A DNA stretch of 64,000 nt from Escherichia coli. Lineage in GTDB: Bacteria; Pseudomonadota; Gammaproteobacteria; Enterobacterales; Enterobacteriaceae. The DNA is taken from NCBI RefSeq assembly GCF_003334355.1, contig NZ_QOWP01000006.1. One strand, 5' to 3'. The notes under the pieces are model-generated. The model saw only the letters and a program-made list of their open reading frames with translations, was not told the origin of the DNA and made no database searches. Shown in pieces: positions 16,071-53,505 of the stretch. Positions within the stretch are counted from its first letter, which is position 1; the number at the start of each line of letters is the position of its first letter. The translations under genes were made by a program, and so were the position numbers.

Positions 16071-16703
16071 ATGAAACCAACGTCGGTGATCATTATGGAT
16101 ACTCATCCTATCATCAGAATGTCTATTGAAGTTCTGTTGCAAAAAAACAGTGAATTGCAGATTGTCCTGAAAACGGATGATTACCGCATAACCATCGATT
16201 ATCTCCGAACCCGTCCTGTTGATTTAATCATTATGGATATAGACTTGCCCGGAACAGACGGTTTTACCTTCCTGAAAAGGATCAAACAAATCCAGAGCAC
16301 AGTGAAAGTGTTATTTTTATCATCGAAATCAGAATGCTTTTATGCTGGCAGAGCGATACAAGCTGGTGCTAACGGTTTTGTCAGTAAATGCAATGATCAG
16401 AATGATATTTTTCATGCCGTTCAGATGATCCTCTCCGGATACACGTTTTTTCCTAGCGAAACGCTTAACTATATAAAAAGCAATAAATGTAGTACGAATA
16501 GTTCAACGATCACTGTGCTATCTAATCGTGAAGTGACCATATTACGTTATCTGGTTAGCGGATTATCTAATAAAGAAATTGCCGATAAGTTATTACTTAG
16601 CAATAAAACAGTTAGTGCGCATAAATCTAATATTTATGGCAAGCTAGGTTTGCATTCAATTGTAGAGCTTATCGACTACGCCAAATTATACGAATTAATA
16701 TAA
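16071..16703 (+). CDS. fimZ: FimZ response-regulator-like transcription factor
   Basis: MKPTSVIIMDTHPIIRMSIEVLL.. receiver domain plus LuxR-type HTH; 210 aa from this start. Confidence 0.85.
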   Translation: MKPTSVIIMDTHPIIRMSIEVLLQKNSELQIVLKTDDYRITIDYLRTRPVDLIIMDIDLPGTDGFTFLKRIKQIQSTVKVLFLSSKSECFYAGRAIQAGANGFVSKCNDQNDIFHAVQMILSGYTFFPSETLNYIKSNKCSTNSSTITVLSNREVTILRYLVSGLSNKEIADKLLLSNKTVSAHKSNIYGKLGLHSIVELIDYAKLYELI

Positions 16704-16705
16704 TA

Positions 16706-17221
16706 TTAATTATAATTGATCATAAATATCGCATCCGCTTTCGCCACACCTGGCCGAACACCGCTGGCTAACGCTCGATAATTGGCAAAAAAGTTTAGTG
16801 TGACATTGCCATTTGCATCTACTTCCTCAGTCGGGCTCGCCTCCCCCAGTGCGAGCCGGGAGCGATCGCTATTACGTAATTCGATGGCGACGGTTTGTGC
16901 CATTGCGGGATCATCCAGAGCCAGCAGGTTGGTATCGGATGCCGGCGTTCCCGTAAATAAAATCGCAACTGAACCCGGAGGACATCCCTCCAGCCGCAGG
17001 CTAAAAGGGACGAGTGCCGTGGTATCGCCAGCGTTCAGTAATTGTGTCGTAGGCCATCTGCCTAAATCTACCGTCTTATCAATATCCGCTGTGTTTACGG
17101 TACAGGAGAAATCAACAACGTTACCGTGCAAATTGATATTAATCGTTCCTAAAGGGTCAGCTGCCCATCCACTGGAACTCCACAGTAACCCGCAGAAACA
17201 GCTAAAGAGTACTCTTCTCAT
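16706..17221 (-). CDS. sfmF: SfmF fimbrial-like adhesin subunit
   Basis: Signal peptide MRRVLFSCFCGLLWSSSGWA; start chosen inside the longer track ORF; sfm operon synteny. Confidence 0.75.
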   Translation of the reverse strand: MRRVLFSCFCGLLWSSSGWAADPLGTININLHGNVVDFSCTVNTADIDKTVDLGRWPTTQLLNAGDTTALVPFSLRLEGCPPGSVAILFTGTPASDTNLLALDDPAMAQTVAIELRNSDRSRLALGEASPTEEVDANGNVTLNFFANYRALASGVRPGVAKADAIFMINYN

Positions 17222-17231
17222 TCTCCGTACC

Positions 17232-18239
17232 TCATTGATAATCGACGCGTAAATACCCCAGCGCGCTAAACGGCCCCTCGGTCGGTTTTTGACCGGTAAT
17301 ACTGATAGGCCAGGCGCGAAGTGTGACATTGGCTGCCGCAGCTGCATCCAGACGGAAAGGAATAACGCTATTGAGATCGTTAGGCGTAATCGGCGTATCG
17401 TTCTGATCGGCGACAATAAAACCTAAATCCTGATTGTCCGACACCATCGCCTGACCAGAAACGGCACTGGCTTCCAGACGCATTGTTAAATAAGCCTGCG
17501 CAGCAACATTCGTACATTTGACCGCAATGCTCTTGGTTTGCGGCATGACACCAGCAGGTCGATTACCCGGCCCTGCCGCACTAAATAACGATGCGCCGAT
17601 ATCACCAAAATCAAATTCAACAATCTGCCCGGCATTTAATTCGCAGTTTTGCGGTACTTCAACCCGGCCACCAAAACTAATGGTATAAACAGGTGTAACC
17701 AACGGATCGTAAGGCGTTGATGTCACATACACGGTAAACATCACCTGTCTGGGGATCTCCACCATGTTAATAAAGGGACGAATAACCTTTAAACGAAATA
17801 TTAAACGAGAATCCATCACCCCGAATAGAAGGTTTTGCGAAACGTTAGGATCTGTTCCCATCCGAATATAATTTTGCGGGGGGAACTGAATATCCATAAC
17901 ACTATCAACCAGACTCATCGCACCTAATAGATAATCATGTAATTGCATATATTTATAATTATCGATAGTTTCCTGAACAATAAAGTTGGTGACATAACTA
18001 CGGTATGTATAATTCACCAGCGTGCCGGGTGGACAAATTGCTGACACACCTACCCAGCCGGATTTTTCCGGTAAAACAACAATCTGCCCTGGCTGGTTAT
18101 TGGTGCTATTAAAGACATTTGAGAGATCATAGTGTTCATCTTCTGCTACGCCAGTACTATTTGCACAAACAGTAGCCCAGGATATGTTTGTTAACCACAA
18201 ACATGCCATCGCCAATAATAATCTGCAGATTATCTTCAT
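17232..18239 (-). CDS. sfmH: SfmH fimbrial adhesin-like protein
   Basis: 335-aa ORF with signal peptide, in sfm operon position. Confidence 0.75.
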   Translation of the reverse strand: MKIICRLLLAMACLWLTNISWATVCANSTGVAEDEHYDLSNVFNSTNNQPGQIVVLPEKSGWVGVSAICPPGTLVNYTYRSYVTNFIVQETIDNYKYMQLHDYLLGAMSLVDSVMDIQFPPQNYIRMGTDPNVSQNLLFGVMDSRLIFRLKVIRPFINMVEIPRQVMFTVYVTSTPYDPLVTPVYTISFGGRVEVPQNCELNAGQIVEFDFGDIGASLFSAAGPGNRPAGVMPQTKSIAVKCTNVAAQAYLTMRLEASAVSGQAMVSDNQDLGFIVADQNDTPITPNDLNSVIPFRLDAAAAANVTLRAWPISITGQKPTEGPFSALGYLRVDYQ

Positions 18240-18251
18240 TGATAATTTCCT

Positions 18252-20861
18252 TTATGAGCCAGGATGTGTGCAAACTGCCGAAATAACTGTGACGGCTTGC
18301 TGTAAGCTTTGCTTCGGCAATACATAGTGCGCAATGCAGCGTGAGTTCGCGCCGTCTCCCCACTGAACCAGTAATTCACCAGACAATGGCGCACCACTTA
18401 AATAAACTTGCCCGTCATCACCCACCATACTGGTTATTCCGGTACTGTTTTCCCGTACCAGTGATCCAAACGGCACCGGTTTTCTGCCCTGGGTAACGGT
18501 AATGAGCGCCCGCACGCCTATGCGGGTATCAAAATTGGCACGAACCAACGCGCCTTGCGTCGGCACAACGCTGCTAATATTTTTTTCAACATCGATGGAA
18601 TTCCCCATCGTATTGGTATCAAGCGCGATACGGTTATACCGATAAACCGTGGCATACGGCATCACCGCATAGCCGCGCCAGTCGGTTAAAATGCCAGTTT
18701 GATTTTCAATGCGTACACCGCCTGCGCCAGGCGCTTTAATCAAAACATTGGTATCCCCTAAAGGCTGGCTCAGCGTTATGCCATTTTCATGCCCGACCAC
18801 ACCGCCAGACAGCTGCCAGTTAACGTCATGTTGATCGCGGTCGTAGTTATACCCGACCCCCAGCGTACCGTAAGCGGCCTGCCAGTTTGCCGTGGCGCTG
18901 CCCGTATACCCATTATTCGAGGTATCACCCTGGCTTACGTGATAACTCAGGTTGTGGCCTTCCAGTAAGGTCCCACCTACACCTGCCAGCCAGCTATTTT
19001 GCCCGTTGCTGTTACGGTTGGCGTTAAAGGAGGCATAAGCGCGGTCGAGCGCATTTTCCCGGGTGTAGCGACGTTTGGTCAGAACATTGAAAGGCACTGA
19101 AACATTAAGTCCGACAATACGTTCGTTATCGGGGATCCCTACAGATTCATTCCACGAAAATGAGAGTGAATAACTGATGCCAACCCAGCTGCTGGTATAC
19201 CCCACCTGATACCAGGTATCTGAATCCGAAGTATTCCAGTATTTTTGATGGGTACCAGAGATATAAAGCGAGCCAAAGTCATTAAGTGATTGTGAAATAT
19301 TTAACTGCAAACGGTCTTTACGGCTAAAGCGTAAATTGTGGTAATTCACGATTATCGGTTCATCGCGATGCTCACCGTCGTAATCGTAATCATATTCGTA
19401 CCCCTCCATTCGACGATACGCAACATCATCAAGGGTATAAAAACCTTGTGTCGAATAGCGGTAACCCATTAACTGAAAATTGGTGCCGAAGGTGTTCATC
19501 GATTTCGCATAGAGGAAGCGAATGGAATCCCCCTCATGACGACTGTCGTCGGCTAACTGACTGCGCGCATGGGTCACATCCAGCGACACTGTGCCCCAGT
19601 TCCCGAGGTTGCGCCCCAGCCCTAATAAAAAGGCGGTGTAATTGGCAGATAATTGCGTCCCGCCGTAGGCAGTAAATTCCTGTGGTAAACCGCCGAGTGC
19701 CGTACCCTGAAAAAAGAAAGGCGATGATTGCTGACTATTACCGCTACGAAAATCGCCCGCCGTCAGGTCAAATTTGAAACGCCCTTCGCGTTGTAAAATT
19801 GGCACTGTTGAATACGGAATTGTGTAATTCTGCTGATTACCATCGCGCTCGTCGATGGTGACGTCCAGATCGCCATTTGAAGATGTCGGGTGCAAATCTG
19901 TAATTTCAAAAGCGCCGGGGGAAACATAGCTTTGATAGATAATAAAACCATTTTGCCGAATCGTTAGCTGGGCCGCCGTACGGGCAATCCCACGTACTGT
20001 TGGGGCAAACCCTTGCTGGCTATCAGGATACATATTATCGGAAGAGTAAAGCCGTATACCACGAAATCCAACACCATCGAAAATATCACTTCCTGTATTG
20101 CCGTCTCCCATTACCAGTTCACTTTTCAGCGGAATAATGGCGCGCTGTACCCAGGTGCCAATATTATTCCACTGTTCTGAATGATATCCATTTCCGCGAA
20201 AATAGTTCCAGGAATCATTGTTGCGTAAACGCCACGGGCCAATATTAATCCCGCTGAGCTCACTAAAAAAATAGCTATCGTTACCATTACCTCTGTTACC
20301 GGTGAAATTATAATTCAGGAGTAAAGCAGGAATACCTTCATCCCACTCTTCAGGCGGAATGTAACCGTGAGCGCTACTCAACAACGCTATCTGAGGAATA
20401 GTGATGTTCAGGCGCATCGCTGCAAAATCAAAGTTAATTGTGGCATCAGGTACAGCTTTCAGTAAATTGATGCATTTATTGTTTTGCTGCTGGGCTAACT
20501 CGGGAAATGCACTGCTATTAAGGCTAATTCGTTCAAGGAGTACCTGGTTAAAACAGGGCATTAACCCACCTGATTTATCACCTGTATTTTCTGTTGTCGA
20601 TTCAAATACGATATCCTGTGAACCAATGAACTCATCATTACGCCAGAGATCTACCCGATACACGCCCGCAGGTTGATGATTACCTCTCTCAAAGCGCGAT
20701 AAATCAGCAACGGATGTGCCATTCTCTAATAAAAATGCCGGGTTGAAATAACTTTCCGCATAGCTTAAAAAGGAGGGTAAAATGGCAAGAGATGAATAAC
20801 AAATTCCGGCCAGACACCAGGTATACCTCTGCGGAATATCCGTAGTAGTGGGTATTTTCAT
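18252..20861 (-). CDS. sfmD: SfmD fimbrial outer-membrane usher
   Basis: 869-aa ORF, usher-sized, between chaperone and adhesin genes. Confidence 0.85.
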
Positions 20862-49268: not shown

Positions 49269-50378
<1,110 letters not shown>

Positions 50379-50441
50379 TGGGCGGTATTCTGAAACGGCG
50401 ATTGTCGTGAGAACAGAATGGTTGCACCAGAATACAGATAT

Positions 50442-50471
50442 AAAAAAACCGACATGACAGTCGGTTTTTTT
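50442..50471. terminator. bidirectional Rho-independent terminator (mnmH on plus; candidate antisense RNA on minus)
   Basis: AAAAAAACCGACATGACAGTCGGTTTTTTT: 5-bp GC stem flanked by A7 and T7. Confidence 0.8.
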
Positions 50472-50529
50472 ATTTTTTCCGCCCAAGACTTGGTGGTTCC
50501 GGGCAGAAATGAAACAGTCCTCATCTAGC
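50445..50529 (-). ncRNA. candidate antitoxin sRNA of a type I TA pair
   Basis: Minus-strand promoter TTGAAT-17 bp-TATAAT (plus coords 50564-50536); predicted 5' end GCUAGAUGAGGACUG is complementary to plus-strand 50701-50716; ends at terminator 50442-50471. Confidence 0.55.
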
Positions 50530-50535
50530 AAGTGA

Positions 50536-50564
50536 ATTATAAGTCAGGATGCCTACATATTCAA
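50536..50564 (-). promoter_or_regulatory. sigma70-type promoter for the candidate antisense sRNA
   Basis: Minus strand: -35 TTGAAT, 17-bp spacer, consensus -10 TATAAT. Confidence 0.55.
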
Positions 50565-50680
50565 ACAGCTATGTTGGCGATACAATCCCGACGCTAGTAG
50601 TGATACTGCCTCAAGGGATTACCGCAGTGCGGAAAAGTACTTTTAAGTCCTGGTCAGGATACAGGTGGTGCTGATTCTGG

Positions 50681-50689
50681 TGCTCTAAT
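50681..50689 (+). promoter_or_regulatory. extended -10 element (TGcTCTAAT), candidate toxin mRNA promoter
   Basis: TG dinucleotide one base upstream of TCTAAT; no good -35; places the mRNA 5' end just before the repeat at 50701. Confidence 0.35.
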
Positions 50690-50789
50690 TTGGAGAGAGG
50701 CAGTCCTCATCTAGCACATGAAGAAAATCATAGTTACAGGCAACGTAAGGGTAAGCTGTGATTGTCTTTCTCCCTTAAGGGAGCAACGG

Positions 50790-50873
50790 ATGAAAACTTT
50801 TCTCGATAAAGTTCTCATCGTTCTTAAGGCGCTAATCGCGCTGCTGGAACTGATCCGTCAGTTTATTGAATAA
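50790..50873 (+). CDS. 27-aa hydrophobic single-helix peptide, candidate type I toxin (TisB/DinQ-like)
   Basis: MKTFLDKVLIVLKALIALLELIRQFIE; SD GGGAG 6 nt upstream; in-frame upstream ATG at 50718 would give 51 aa; core LIALLELIR recalled as shared with DinQ. Confidence 0.6.
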   Translation: MKTFLDKVLIVLKALIALLELIRQFIE

Positions 50874-50891
50874 CTGAGGAAACGTAGCTAA

Positions 50892-50919
50892 GGCCGAAGG
50901 TTTACCACCTTCGGTCTTT
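50892..50919 (+). terminator. hairpin downstream of the small toxin ORF
   Basis: GGCCGAAGGT-TTACC-ACCTTCGGTC stem-loop followed by short TCTTT. Confidence 0.45.
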
Positions 50920-50945
50920 AAAAAAACCGACATGACAGTTGGTTT
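50920..50945. repeat. second, slightly degenerate copy of the 50442-50471 terminator sequence
   Basis: AAAAAAACCGACATGACAGTTGGTTT, 25/26 identical to AAAAAAACCGACATGACAGTCGGTTT at 50442-50467. Confidence 0.8.
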
Positions 50946-50976
50946 CATATTTATTGCCAAAATGCACACTGTTCAT

Positions 50977-51075
<99 letters not shown>

Positions 51076-51090
51076 ATCTAACACCTGTCA

Positions 51091-53505
51091 TCACCCCGCA
51101 AACTGCCTGAACAGCGCCTTACCCTTAACCAGTCTCGCGCCCAGCCAGCCGCCGAAAAGCGACAGCAGCAGCGCACCGCTGCACGGCAGAACAATCCACA
51201 ATCGCCAGTCTGGCTCCCACGGGAAATCAAACACTTTCGCCTGCAACACTGCCAGTGCCGTTTCCGCACCAATTGCGGCCACCAGGCCGGAAACAAACCC
51301 AAGCATGGCGAACTCACACCACAATGTCGTGCGCAGCAGTTTTTTCCCCGCACCGAGTGTGCGCCATACCACCAGCTCCTGATGACGCTGGCGCATTCCC
51401 ACCTGCACCTGTGCCAGCAACAGCAACATACCGCAGGCGGTGACCAGCACCACCATCACCTCCAGCGCCCGACTTACCTGCTCCAGCACCTGACCGACCT
51501 GTTTTAAAATCGCGCCAATATCTAACAGGCTAATGGTCGGGAACTGGCGGTTGAGTTGCGTCAACATGCCGTTGCCATTCTCCCAGCGGAAACTGGTAAG
51601 CCAGCTCTGCGGTTGCCCGTCTAATGCCCCTTCCGGGAAAATAAAATAGAAATTAGGCCGCAGACTTTCCCAGTCCACTTTGCGCAGGCTGGTCACTTTA
51701 GCGCGGAACTCCTGGGTATCGCCCATAAAAGTCACGGTATCACCGAGGGCAACGTTTAAGCGTTTCGCCAGCCCCTCTTCCATCGACACTTCATCGGCTT
51801 TTGGCGGCCAGTTACCGGCGACAATCGGATTATGATCGGGCCGCGTATTTTGCCAGGTAAGATTGAGTTCGCGATTAAGCGCCTCATCTTCATTACCTTC
51901 TGTCGGCTTATCGTTAATCGCCGTCAGCCGCGCCCGCACTACCGGATAAAATGATTCCGGGACTATATGATGTTCCGCGAGGAACGCTTTTAGCGGTGCT
52001 ACCTGTTCTGTGGCGATGTTAATTAAAAAGTAGTTCGGGCTTTCTGGCGGTAGCTGCTGCTGCCAGCGGTCGAGCAGATCGCCACGCAATACCAGCAACA
52101 GCGCCAGCAGCATAAAGGAGAGCGAAAATGCCGAAAGCTGACTTAACGTTGACCACGGCTGACGTAACAGGCGGCTAACCGCCAGGCGCAGAGGCAGCGA
52201 TTTCAGCGTCATGCGGCGAAGTACATTCAGCAGCATCCAGCCCAGCACACCGCACAGCAAAGCCAGTACTACCGCGCCCGCCAGCACCGCCCAAAGCAGC
52301 ATGCTGCCACCCATTAATCCGGCGAGCAGCAGCACAACCACCACACTGACAATCGGCAGATAAAACTTCAGCGGCCAGACGTTCGCTACCACATCATTAC
52401 GTAATACGCGTAAAGGCTGCGTTGCCAGCAACAAGCGATATGGTCGTAGCCCCACCAGCAGCGAGATGACCGTCATGGTGCCAAGCGCCCACAGCCACGG
52501 CCAGAGGCTGGCTGGCGGTAGTGCAGCAGGCAGAACGGGCTTGAGCAGCACCATCAACACGTTTTCGAACAACAGACCTATGGCCCCACCGGTAACGGCT
52601 GAAAGCGTCAGCACCATCAACCACTGACCGACGATTAGCTTACGCAGTTGCGCTCGCCCTGCCCCCAGCGTTTTGAGGATCGCCACCAGATCGTAGCGAC
52701 TGCGACAGTAATGATTCATCGCTACCGCCACCGCTGCCACTGCCAGCAGCAAGGTCAGAAGCGCCGAAAGCAGCAGGAACTGTTGCGAGCGTTCCATCGA
52801 TCGCCCCAGCGCGCCTTCGTCCTGTTCCAGACCGTACCAGCGTTGTTCGGGTTTAAGCTGAGGTAACAACCATTTCTCATAGCCGTCGAGCTGGTTCTCG
52901 TTGCCGCCGAATTTATAACGCCAGGTGACCCGACTCCCCGGCTGCACGGCTCCGGTTTTATCGACATCCGCCAGATTCATCATCAGACGCGGAGCCATCT
53001 GGAAGGGGTTAAAACCGGAATCCGGTTCCTGAATCACTTCTCCGGCAATCCGCAAGGTGGCATCGCCCACGTCAATGGTGTCGCCCGTTTTCAGGTTAAG
53101 CAGTGCCATCAGGCGTGGGGCCAGCAATACGCTGCCCGCCTGCGGTTTCAGGCCAGGGGGATTAGTTTGCAGATCGCCATACATCGGGTAGATATCATCC
53201 ACCGCTTTGACGTTCGCCAGCTGCGGTGTGTCGCCTGCAAAGGTCATTGTGGCGAAAGTCAGCTGCTTGCCGACTTTCAGGCCGCGCTTTTGCGCTTCCT
53301 CCAGCCACGCTTGCGGCACTTCGCGTGAACTGCGCAACGCCCGATCGCCCGCCATAAACTCACGGCTTTGCTGGCTTAAGCCCTTCTCCATGCGATCGCT
53401 GATATTGCCCAGCGCCAGCACGCAGGCCACCGCCAGGCTTAGCGCCAGCCAGACAATTAATAGCGACGGCGAACGCCATTCGCGCCAGAACCAACGTGCA
53501 ATCAT
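51091..53505 (-). CDS. ybbP: ABC-type transporter permease (FtsX-like, two domains) YbbP
   Basis: 804-aa membrane ORF overlapping ybbA. Confidence 0.85.
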   Translation of the reverse strand: MIARWFWREWRSPSLLIVWLALSLAVACVLALGNISDRMEKGLSQQSREFMAGDRALRSSREVPQAWLEEAQKRGLKVGKQLTFATMTFAGDTPQLANVKAVDDIYPMYGDLQTNPPGLKPQAGSVLLAPRLMALLNLKTGDTIDVGDATLRIAGEVIQEPDSGFNPFQMAPRLMMNLADVDKTGAVQPGSRVTWRYKFGGNENQLDGYEKWLLPQLKPEQRWYGLEQDEGALGRSMERSQQFLLLSALLTLLLAVAAVAVAMNHYCRSRYDLVAILKTLGAGRAQLRKLIVGQWLMVLTLSAVTGGAIGLLFENVLMVLLKPVLPAALPPASLWPWLWALGTMTVISLLVGLRPYRLLLATQPLRVLRNDVVANVWPLKFYLPIVSVVVVLLLAGLMGGSMLLWAVLAGAVVLALLCGVLGWMLLNVLRRMTLKSLPLRLAVSRLLRQPWSTLSQLSAFSLSFMLLALLLVLRGDLLDRWQQQLPPESPNYFLINIATEQVAPLKAFLAEHHIVPESFYPVVRARLTAINDKPTEGNEDEALNRELNLTWQNTRPDHNPIVAGNWPPKADEVSMEEGLAKRLNVALGDTVTFMGDTQEFRAKVTSLRKVDWESLRPNFYFIFPEGALDGQPQSWLTSFRWENGNGMLTQLNRQFPTISLLDIGAILKQVGQVLEQVSRALEVMVVLVTACGMLLLLAQVQVGMRQRHQELVVWRTLGAGKKLLRTTLWCEFAMLGFVSGLVAAIGAETALAVLQAKVFDFPWEPDWRLWIVLPCSGALLLSLFGGWLGARLVKGKALFRQFAG

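Follow-up and report, generated by a model that had tools for sequence, protein, structure and literature searches.

Between mnmH and ybbP, the Escherichia coli sequence analyzed here carries the same hairpin-forming stretch on either side of a small toxin-antitoxin module, which raises the question of how a terminator-like hairpin came to stand at both ends of a cassette. The initial annotation of the window (the whole 64,000-nt stretch of contig NZ_QOWP01000006.1 that was analyzed) read the arrangement as an insertion into, or recombination at, a single ancestral bidirectional terminator. The 26-bp direct duplication on which that reading was built is real: AAAAAAACCGACATGACAGTCGGTTT occupies positions 50442 to 50467 (copy 1) and recurs at 50920 to 50945 (copy 2) with 25/26 identity and a single C-to-T change (GTCGG to GTTGG), and the stem pattern matched these two sites only in the 64-kb window, against an expectation of 0.00 from 100 shuffles. 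The repeat can be written as a 27-nt core (TAAAAAAACCGACATGACAGTCGGTTT) at 50441 to 50467 that returns at 50919 to 50945 with one C-to-T change, and a repeat search extended the pair to 40 nt at 83% identity (50441 to 50480 versus 50919 to 50958), with a spacing of 478 bp.

Since the repeat recurs across module alleles, an assembly artifact is ruled out. The C of copy 1 and the T of copy 2 were paired in this way in 13 of the 15 module alleles read, and in the remaining two, copy 2 bore an additional change (one A lost, or T to C); every readable copy 2 had T at the C/T site, and all 15 alleles had C in copy 1. When the flanks outside the 27-nt core were locally aligned and compared with shuffles, their similarity was not significant (left, P = 0.44 to 0.81; right, P = 0.05 to 0.16, which is marginal). 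A longer duplication, or the relic of a tandem array, was considered and rejected on these alignments, which were nonsignificant on the left and marginal on the right. Taken by itself, the repeat is an ordinary structural detail.

The two copies enclose an sRNA gene, a 22-nt repeat shared by the sRNA and the toxin 5'UTR, and a 27-codon open reading frame, all three as initially described; mnmH (49284 to 50378, plus strand) forms the left flank, and ybbP (51091 to 53505, minus strand) forms the right. The sRNA gene, including copy 1 as its terminator, runs from 50440 to 50528 on the minus strand, divergent from the toxin gene, and matches the Rfam AgrB family (RF02891) over the full model length (minus strand, 50528 to 50440; 53.6 bits against a gathering score of 40, E = 4e-8). 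A promoter-like site (TTGAAT, 17 nt, TATAAT; 50536 to 50564, minus strand), which is a consensus match only, is placed to start the sRNA near 50528. The 22-nt repeat, called D2, lies at the 5' end of the sRNA gene (D2a, 50515 to 50536) and again in the 5'UTR of the toxin mRNA (D2b, 50701 to 50722, plus strand), with 20/22 identical positions and a spacing of 186 bp. Because D2 is a direct repeat and the sRNA reads D2a on the minus strand, the 5' end of the sRNA is complementary to the 5'UTR of the toxin mRNA, and D2b is the predicted pairing target.

The open reading frame (50790 to 50873, plus strand; MKTFLDKVLIVLKALIALLELIRQFIE) encodes a small, hydrophobic, single-helix peptide of 27 amino acids that belongs to the DinQ family. 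It scored 40.9 bits against NCBIfam NF041472 (DinQ; cut-off, 30) and 24.5 bits against NF041473 (DqlB), which is under the cut-off of 35, and Pfam PF28061 also matched the called open reading frame. The peptide was identical in 14/15 module alleles, and in strain 214-4, which does not differ from the window over this region, the RefSeq annotation names the gene dinQ. Folding predicts that the gene has a terminator hairpin of its own, a 12-bp stem followed by TTT (50890 to 50918, plus strand), and copy 2 begins one base past it. Judged by these matches, the module belongs to the known DinQ/dql-AgrB family of type I toxin-antitoxin systems, and it is already present in the RefSeq annotation.

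Several further features of the interval were recorded. A pattern search for a CTG-N10-CAG LexA box found none in 50393 to 50962, and this mnmH-ybbP paralogue of dinQ is probably not SOS regulated. RefSeq applies the name "damage-inducible type I toxin DinQ" to this module without a LexA box, whereas K-12 dinQ has one (CTGTATGATTATCCAG); LexA control of the toxin promoter is a mark of dinQ proper and not of the dql genes at large. Within the toxin terminator, at window positions 50910 to 50917, the window strain has CTTCGGTC, with a G.U pair, and most other alleles have CTTCGGCC. REP-type palindromic elements fill the interval from the module to ybbP (50971 to 51053; partial matches to Rfam naRNA4 and ES036); their number varies by strain, and one strain is ~200 bp longer here (about 2030 to 2300 of locus L136). 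One carrier (NZ_CP148378.1, 4618561 to 4621062) has an IS481-family transposase within the mnmH-ybbP stretch matched by the query 50000 to 51400.

As for the hairpin itself, copy 1 is a perfect palindrome with a 14-bp stem, counting the A and T runs (50440 to 50473). Its predicted folds are stable on both strands (plus, -16.4 kcal/mol, z about -5.6; minus, -17.5 kcal/mol, z about -6.0), and U runs are present on both sides. By the usual features of intrinsic terminators (a stable, G+C-containing stem and a U run), it is a predicted bidirectional terminator, and it was unchanged in 15/15 module alleles. Copy 1 also constitutes the 3' part of the full-length AgrB match that scored above the Rfam gathering threshold. 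By this match and these folds, copy 1 is the predicted Rho-independent terminator of the minus-strand AgrB-like sRNA, and on the plus strand it probably ends mnmH as well; it would be a working terminator that is strong in both directions.

Relatives of the sRNA carry the same stem. The AAAAAAACCGAC/GTCGGTTTTTT stem is common to K-12 agrA/agrB and copy 1, with the K-12 right arm one T shorter, and the full 12-bp stem (AAAAAAACCGAC/GTCGGTTTTTTT) is found in AgrB-like sRNAs that adjoin DinQ-family toxins, one on a Salmonella conjugative element and one on a chromosome of Yersiniaceae. Each of these sRNAs scores above the Rfam gathering threshold. The similarity to K-12 agrA/agrB extends ~14 nt past the terminator (10/14 and 8/14 positions in a fixed register), and this ~14-nt segment is kept in the alleles with a single hairpin that are described below. 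Given that the stem is an AgrB-family feature and that the homology continues past the terminator, the hairpin arrived with the sRNA gene rather than being resident at the site, contrary to the origin first proposed. The Yersiniaceae sRNA (1673 to 1742 of locus L155) also gave a subthreshold match to the OrzO-P antitoxin (37.5 bits against a gathering score of 60), which echoes the likeness that has been described between the zor and dinQ 5'UTRs (PMC11264685).

The contrary account is that a bidirectional terminator resident between mnmH and ybbP was hit by a toxin-antitoxin unit of ~478 bp, that 26 nt were duplicated in the process, and that any allele with one hairpin is the surviving ancestral empty site. 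A stem of this type is indeed a common terminator motif in unrelated bacteria, in that the pattern AAAAACCGACN6GTYGGTTT matched at least 120 loci in the genome collection; the pattern is loose, and the matches are generic terminators of unrelated bacteria, none of which, among those listed, has the ATGACA loop. Against this account, the hairpin adjoins the sRNA body without a break, both in the Rfam model and at four other loci, so that a terminator-less sRNA would have had to land on a terminator of the same sequence. To our knowledge, a 26-nt target duplication also matches no known transposition mechanism.

We then compared the occupants of the mnmH-ybbP slot, using junction queries against 5,426 complete E. 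coli genomes. The slot is of the Rhs/ylbG type in 2,906 genomes, holds the toxin-antitoxin cassette in 1,282 to 1,315, holds an Hcp-effector island in 574, is empty in 457, and has a single hairpin in 3; about 170 genomes, a figure obtained by subtraction that includes the FDAARGOS_1301 type, were unclassified. In K-12, RhsD, ybbC, Rhs fragments, and ylbG lie between mnmH and ybbP, in agreement with the initial statement that RhsD occupies the same slot, and one STEC strain carries a degenerate Rhs there. In ST131 (E. coli O25:H4; 16370 to 20612 of locus L130), the cargo consists of a 2-kb tssD (Hcp)-effector fusion gene and three DUF2931 genes, and the island replaces the last mnmH codons (a gene of 1,107 bp versus 1,095 bp). 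With Rhs-type cargo, the Hcp-effector island, the toxin-antitoxin module, or REP elements only at one position, the slot can fairly be called a hotspot for alternative cargo. The census thereby documents a polymorphism of the mnmH-ybbP interval with four states: Rhs, the Hcp-effector island, the toxin-antitoxin module, and an empty site.

The empty alleles are of particular relevance to a resident terminator, because the empty junction, found in 457/5,426 genomes, contains no hairpin. In UPEC957C, KOr019, and FDAARGOS_1301, the sequence after the mnmH stop codon passes from ATTCTG directly into TGCAC and on toward the REP elements and ybbP, and the junction query taken from UPEC957C found a 100% match in Nissle 1917. 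Compared with these alleles, the window carries an insert of 570 bp (50393 to 50962, with a boundary that is ambiguous by 2 nt) that comprises both hairpin copies plus 49 nt on the left and 17 nt on the right. A target-site duplication implies one copy in the empty site, yet these 457 genomes have zero copies, and the one-copy alleles (3 genomes), which are found in both hybrid forms, still contain 49 + 17 nt of flank that is specific to the insert. The abundance of empty alleles that lack the hairpin and both of these flanks counts against an insertion into, or recombination at, a single ancestral terminator. The "empty" FDAARGOS_1301 allele is REP-less and retains half of the ybbP terminator hairpin that is found beside the ST131 island (TACCAGGTAGAAATAAACGGCTTT; 700 to 737 of locus L003 and 20570 to 20612 of locus L130), which suggests that this allele was derived by loss of an ST131-type island and is not primitively empty.

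No signs of mobility were found within the cassette itself. It lay between mnmH and ybbP in 10/10 contexts shown, from 63 contigs, and occurred once per genome, the canonical dinQ locus aside. The cassette contains no mobility genes and no terminal inverted repeats, and its context was the same everywhere examined. Searches of plasmids returned no close copy, only dql paralogues of ~70% identity, and searches of phages returned no match. Three near-identical "plasmid" matches were discarded as mislabeled chromosomes. The lack of a transposase, an integrase, a terminal inverted repeat, and a second insertion site likewise weighs against a resident terminator hit by an incoming unit.

A site with a single terminator copy, which the initial annotation expected to find as the empty site, does exist, although it is rare and in our reading is not ancestral. 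The query was a synthetic sequence of 74 nt in which a lone hairpin was placed between the flank to the left of copy 1 and that to the right of copy 2, and full-length, single-piece matches were obtained in exactly three of the 5,426 genomes (AR_0077, GF131, and LR-28). AR_0077 and GF131 carry GTCGG, the C form of copy 1, whereas LR-28 carries GTTGG, the T form of copy 2. AR_0077 and LR-28 differ by 1 nt in the 1,095 nt of mnmH and yet differ at the C/T site; AR_0077 and GF131 have an identical proximal ybbP flank and are 35 nt apart in mnmH. All three alleles keep the insert-specific flanks that are homologous to the agr loci.

The C and T forms are the two products expected from a crossover between the copies, or from slippage between them, to the right or to the left of the C/T site. 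At least LR-28, with its T form, therefore derives from a module allele, and the presence of both forms on near-identical mnmH flanks, as deletion between the copies yields, speaks against reading these alleles as the ancestral site. For the same reason, the T form of LR-28 on the mnmH haplotype of the C-form AR_0077 does not fit a terminator that preceded the module. We read the single-hairpin alleles as deletion scars, and we infer the direction of change, from module to single hairpin. A single hairpin of the C form could in principle be old.

The flanking sequences are less informative on this point. The nearest module-bearing relative of the single-hairpin genomes is 98.5% identical over 3 kb of flank, and the flanks of these genomes are recombination mosaics. 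Since the flanks are mosaic and the collection holds no very close module-bearing relative, phylogeny leaves the direction of change unproven, and we set aside flanking similarity as a decisive measure of that direction. An old allele might look like this, on diverged mosaic flanks and without a near-identical module-bearing relative, and the three alleles have the exact structure that a resident terminator predicts. With these points weighed against the contiguity of hairpin and sRNA, the hairpin-free empty sites, and the T form of LR-28, we regard a resident terminator duplicated by insertion as rather unlikely.

It is quite unlikely, in our estimation, that the single-hairpin form is ancestral by the related route in which the toxin-antitoxin unit entered by template switching or recombination at the terminator hairpin, or by its variant in which the hairpin is a reversible excision and integration site. 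If true, such an entry would represent a terminator-targeted route for gaining small toxin-antitoxin cassettes. We also considered that the hairpin pair is a dedicated recombination site, at which the cassette would be excised and reintegrated in the manner of a small mobile unit. Hairpin-forming direct repeats do bound the cassette, and its precise loss is seen, but the cassette is confined to one locus, no recombinase lies close by, the repeat is absent from empty sites, the insert runs 49 nt and 17 nt past the repeats, and loss is very rare (3 versus about 1,315 genomes). Neither the same cassette at other hairpin-type terminators nor a circular 478-bp intermediate was seen, and we judge a dedicated site to be highly improbable.

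We consider it likely instead that the pair is the module's own sRNA terminator present twice within a 570-bp DinQ/dql-AgrB cassette, and that the cassette has on occasion been lost precisely between the two copies. Direct repeats of 26 nt that lie 478 bp apart would permit such a precise loss and would leave a single-hairpin scar, as in 3/5,426 genomes.

Other repeats of the cassette also mark the ends of deletions. A 108-bp deletion (equivalent to window positions 50702 to 50809; about 1003 to 1010 of locus L004) was found in 132/5,426 genomes, about 10% of carriers. The toxin gene thereby loses its Shine-Dalgarno sequence, its start codon, and its first codons, and GGAGAGAGGCAG is joined to TTCTCATCGTTC at an (A)GT(C/T)CTCATC microhomology. 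A 186-bp deletion exactly between the 22-nt D2 repeats (equivalent to window positions 50515 to 50700; locus L134), by which both promoters are gone, was found in 5 genomes; in one strain with this deletion, PE164, RefSeq still annotates dinQ. Across 5,426 genomes, then, the cassette's own repeats (terminator copies, sRNA/target repeats, and microhomologies) are the breakpoints of its deletions. These observations show where a type I toxin-antitoxin cassette on the chromosome has its boundaries and how it is lost; they are of modest importance and leave the understanding of the DinQ/AgrB mechanism unchanged.

The second copy of the hairpin differs markedly from the first in its predicted stability. 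The folding energies of copy 2 are -8.5 kcal/mol (z = -1.7) for the plus strand and -6.3 kcal/mol (z = -0.5) for the minus strand, where the stem contains an A.C mismatch; these values are not distinguishable from those of shuffles. Copy 2 also lacks the right-hand T run. A scan for intrinsic terminators recognized it weakly on the plus strand and did not recognize it on the minus strand, and 2/15 alleles carry further stem-disrupting variants in it. Neither an sRNA terminator repeated after the toxin nor a tandem cassette was found in K-12, at four plasmid loci, on the Salmonella conjugative element, or at two Yersiniaceae chromosomal loci. To judge from these folds and comparisons, copy 2 is a weakened copy that is particular to this cassette, and it may serve at most as a weak backup terminator.

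How copy 2 arose is a matter of conjecture, because no tandem relative was found and the similarity beyond the 27-nt core is nonsignificant. Copy 2 may be what remains, in decayed form, of a cassette duplication that was partial or tandem. The terminators of DinQ-family toxins are followed by TTTAA(T)AAAAAC, which resembles the A run that opens the sRNA terminator, and the A run after the toxin terminator could have seeded the duplication by microhomology.

A different possibility is that copy 2 has been kept by selection as a working terminator, either against read-through from ybbP that would run antisense into the toxin gene or as a backup to the toxin terminator. Every module allele read has copy 2 with its T variant, on flanks that have diverged by 2 to 4%; seven U residues follow copy 2 on the minus strand; on the plus strand, it stands in tandem with the hairpin of the toxin terminator, whose U tract is short, as a backup role would presuppose. 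These features have to be set against the weak folds given above on both strands, a poor plus-strand U tract, the extra stem-disrupting changes in 2/15 alleles, the paralogous modules that do without copy 2, and the REP elements that already separate copy 2 from ybbP. We think selection for such a role unlikely and prefer to view copy 2 as a decayed duplicate.

One of the closest known systems is dinQ-agrAB of E. coli K-12, likewise a type I toxin-antitoxin locus (Weel-Sneve et al. 2013, PMC3567139; Kristiansen et al. 2016, PMC5066626). Both loci encode a 27-amino-acid hydrophobic toxin of the DinQ family and a divergent AgrB-type sRNA with a like terminator stem, in both the sRNA owes its complementarity to the toxin 5'UTR to a direct DNA repeat, and in both the toxin terminator is followed by TTTAA. 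They differ in that K-12 has two sRNA genes, in the order gor-dinQ-agrA-agrB-arsR, whereas the module described here has one and lies between mnmH and ybbP rather than between gor and arsR. DNA identity between them is ~69% over the 5'UTR and open reading frame only, the LexA box of K-12 dinQ has no CTG-N10-CAG counterpart in the module, and the sRNA terminator recurs after the toxin gene here and not in K-12.

The module likewise resembles the dql (dinQ-like) genes, which are located on Enterobacteriaceae chromosomes, alongside dinQ, and on plasmids, including the plasmid gene dqlB (Kristiansen et al. 2016, PMC5066626). The dql loci have the same architecture and an AgrB-like sRNA above the Rfam gathering score, and the paralogous modules show the same D2-type repeat arrangement, with spacings of 180 to 241 bp. 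The toxin terminator occupies a homologous position in K-12 dinQ and plasmid dqlB. In contrast, the sRNA terminator is repeated after the toxin in 0/7 of the dql/dinQ-like loci examined and is so repeated here, and the peptide scores as DinQ and below the DqlB cut-off.

The losses resemble repeat-mediated deletion by slipped-strand or unequal-crossover events, in that 478 bp bounded by 26-nt hairpin-forming direct repeats have been lost with both hybrid products and another deletion has the 22-nt D2 repeats at its ends, a mechanism that we infer here from the alleles themselves. Finally, the RhsD element and the Hcp-effector/DUF2931 island share the intergenic position of the cassette, with the homology between alleles ending a few bases from the mnmH and ybbP stop codons, whereas they bring 4 to 7 kb of unrelated cargo that has no sequence in common with the cassette.
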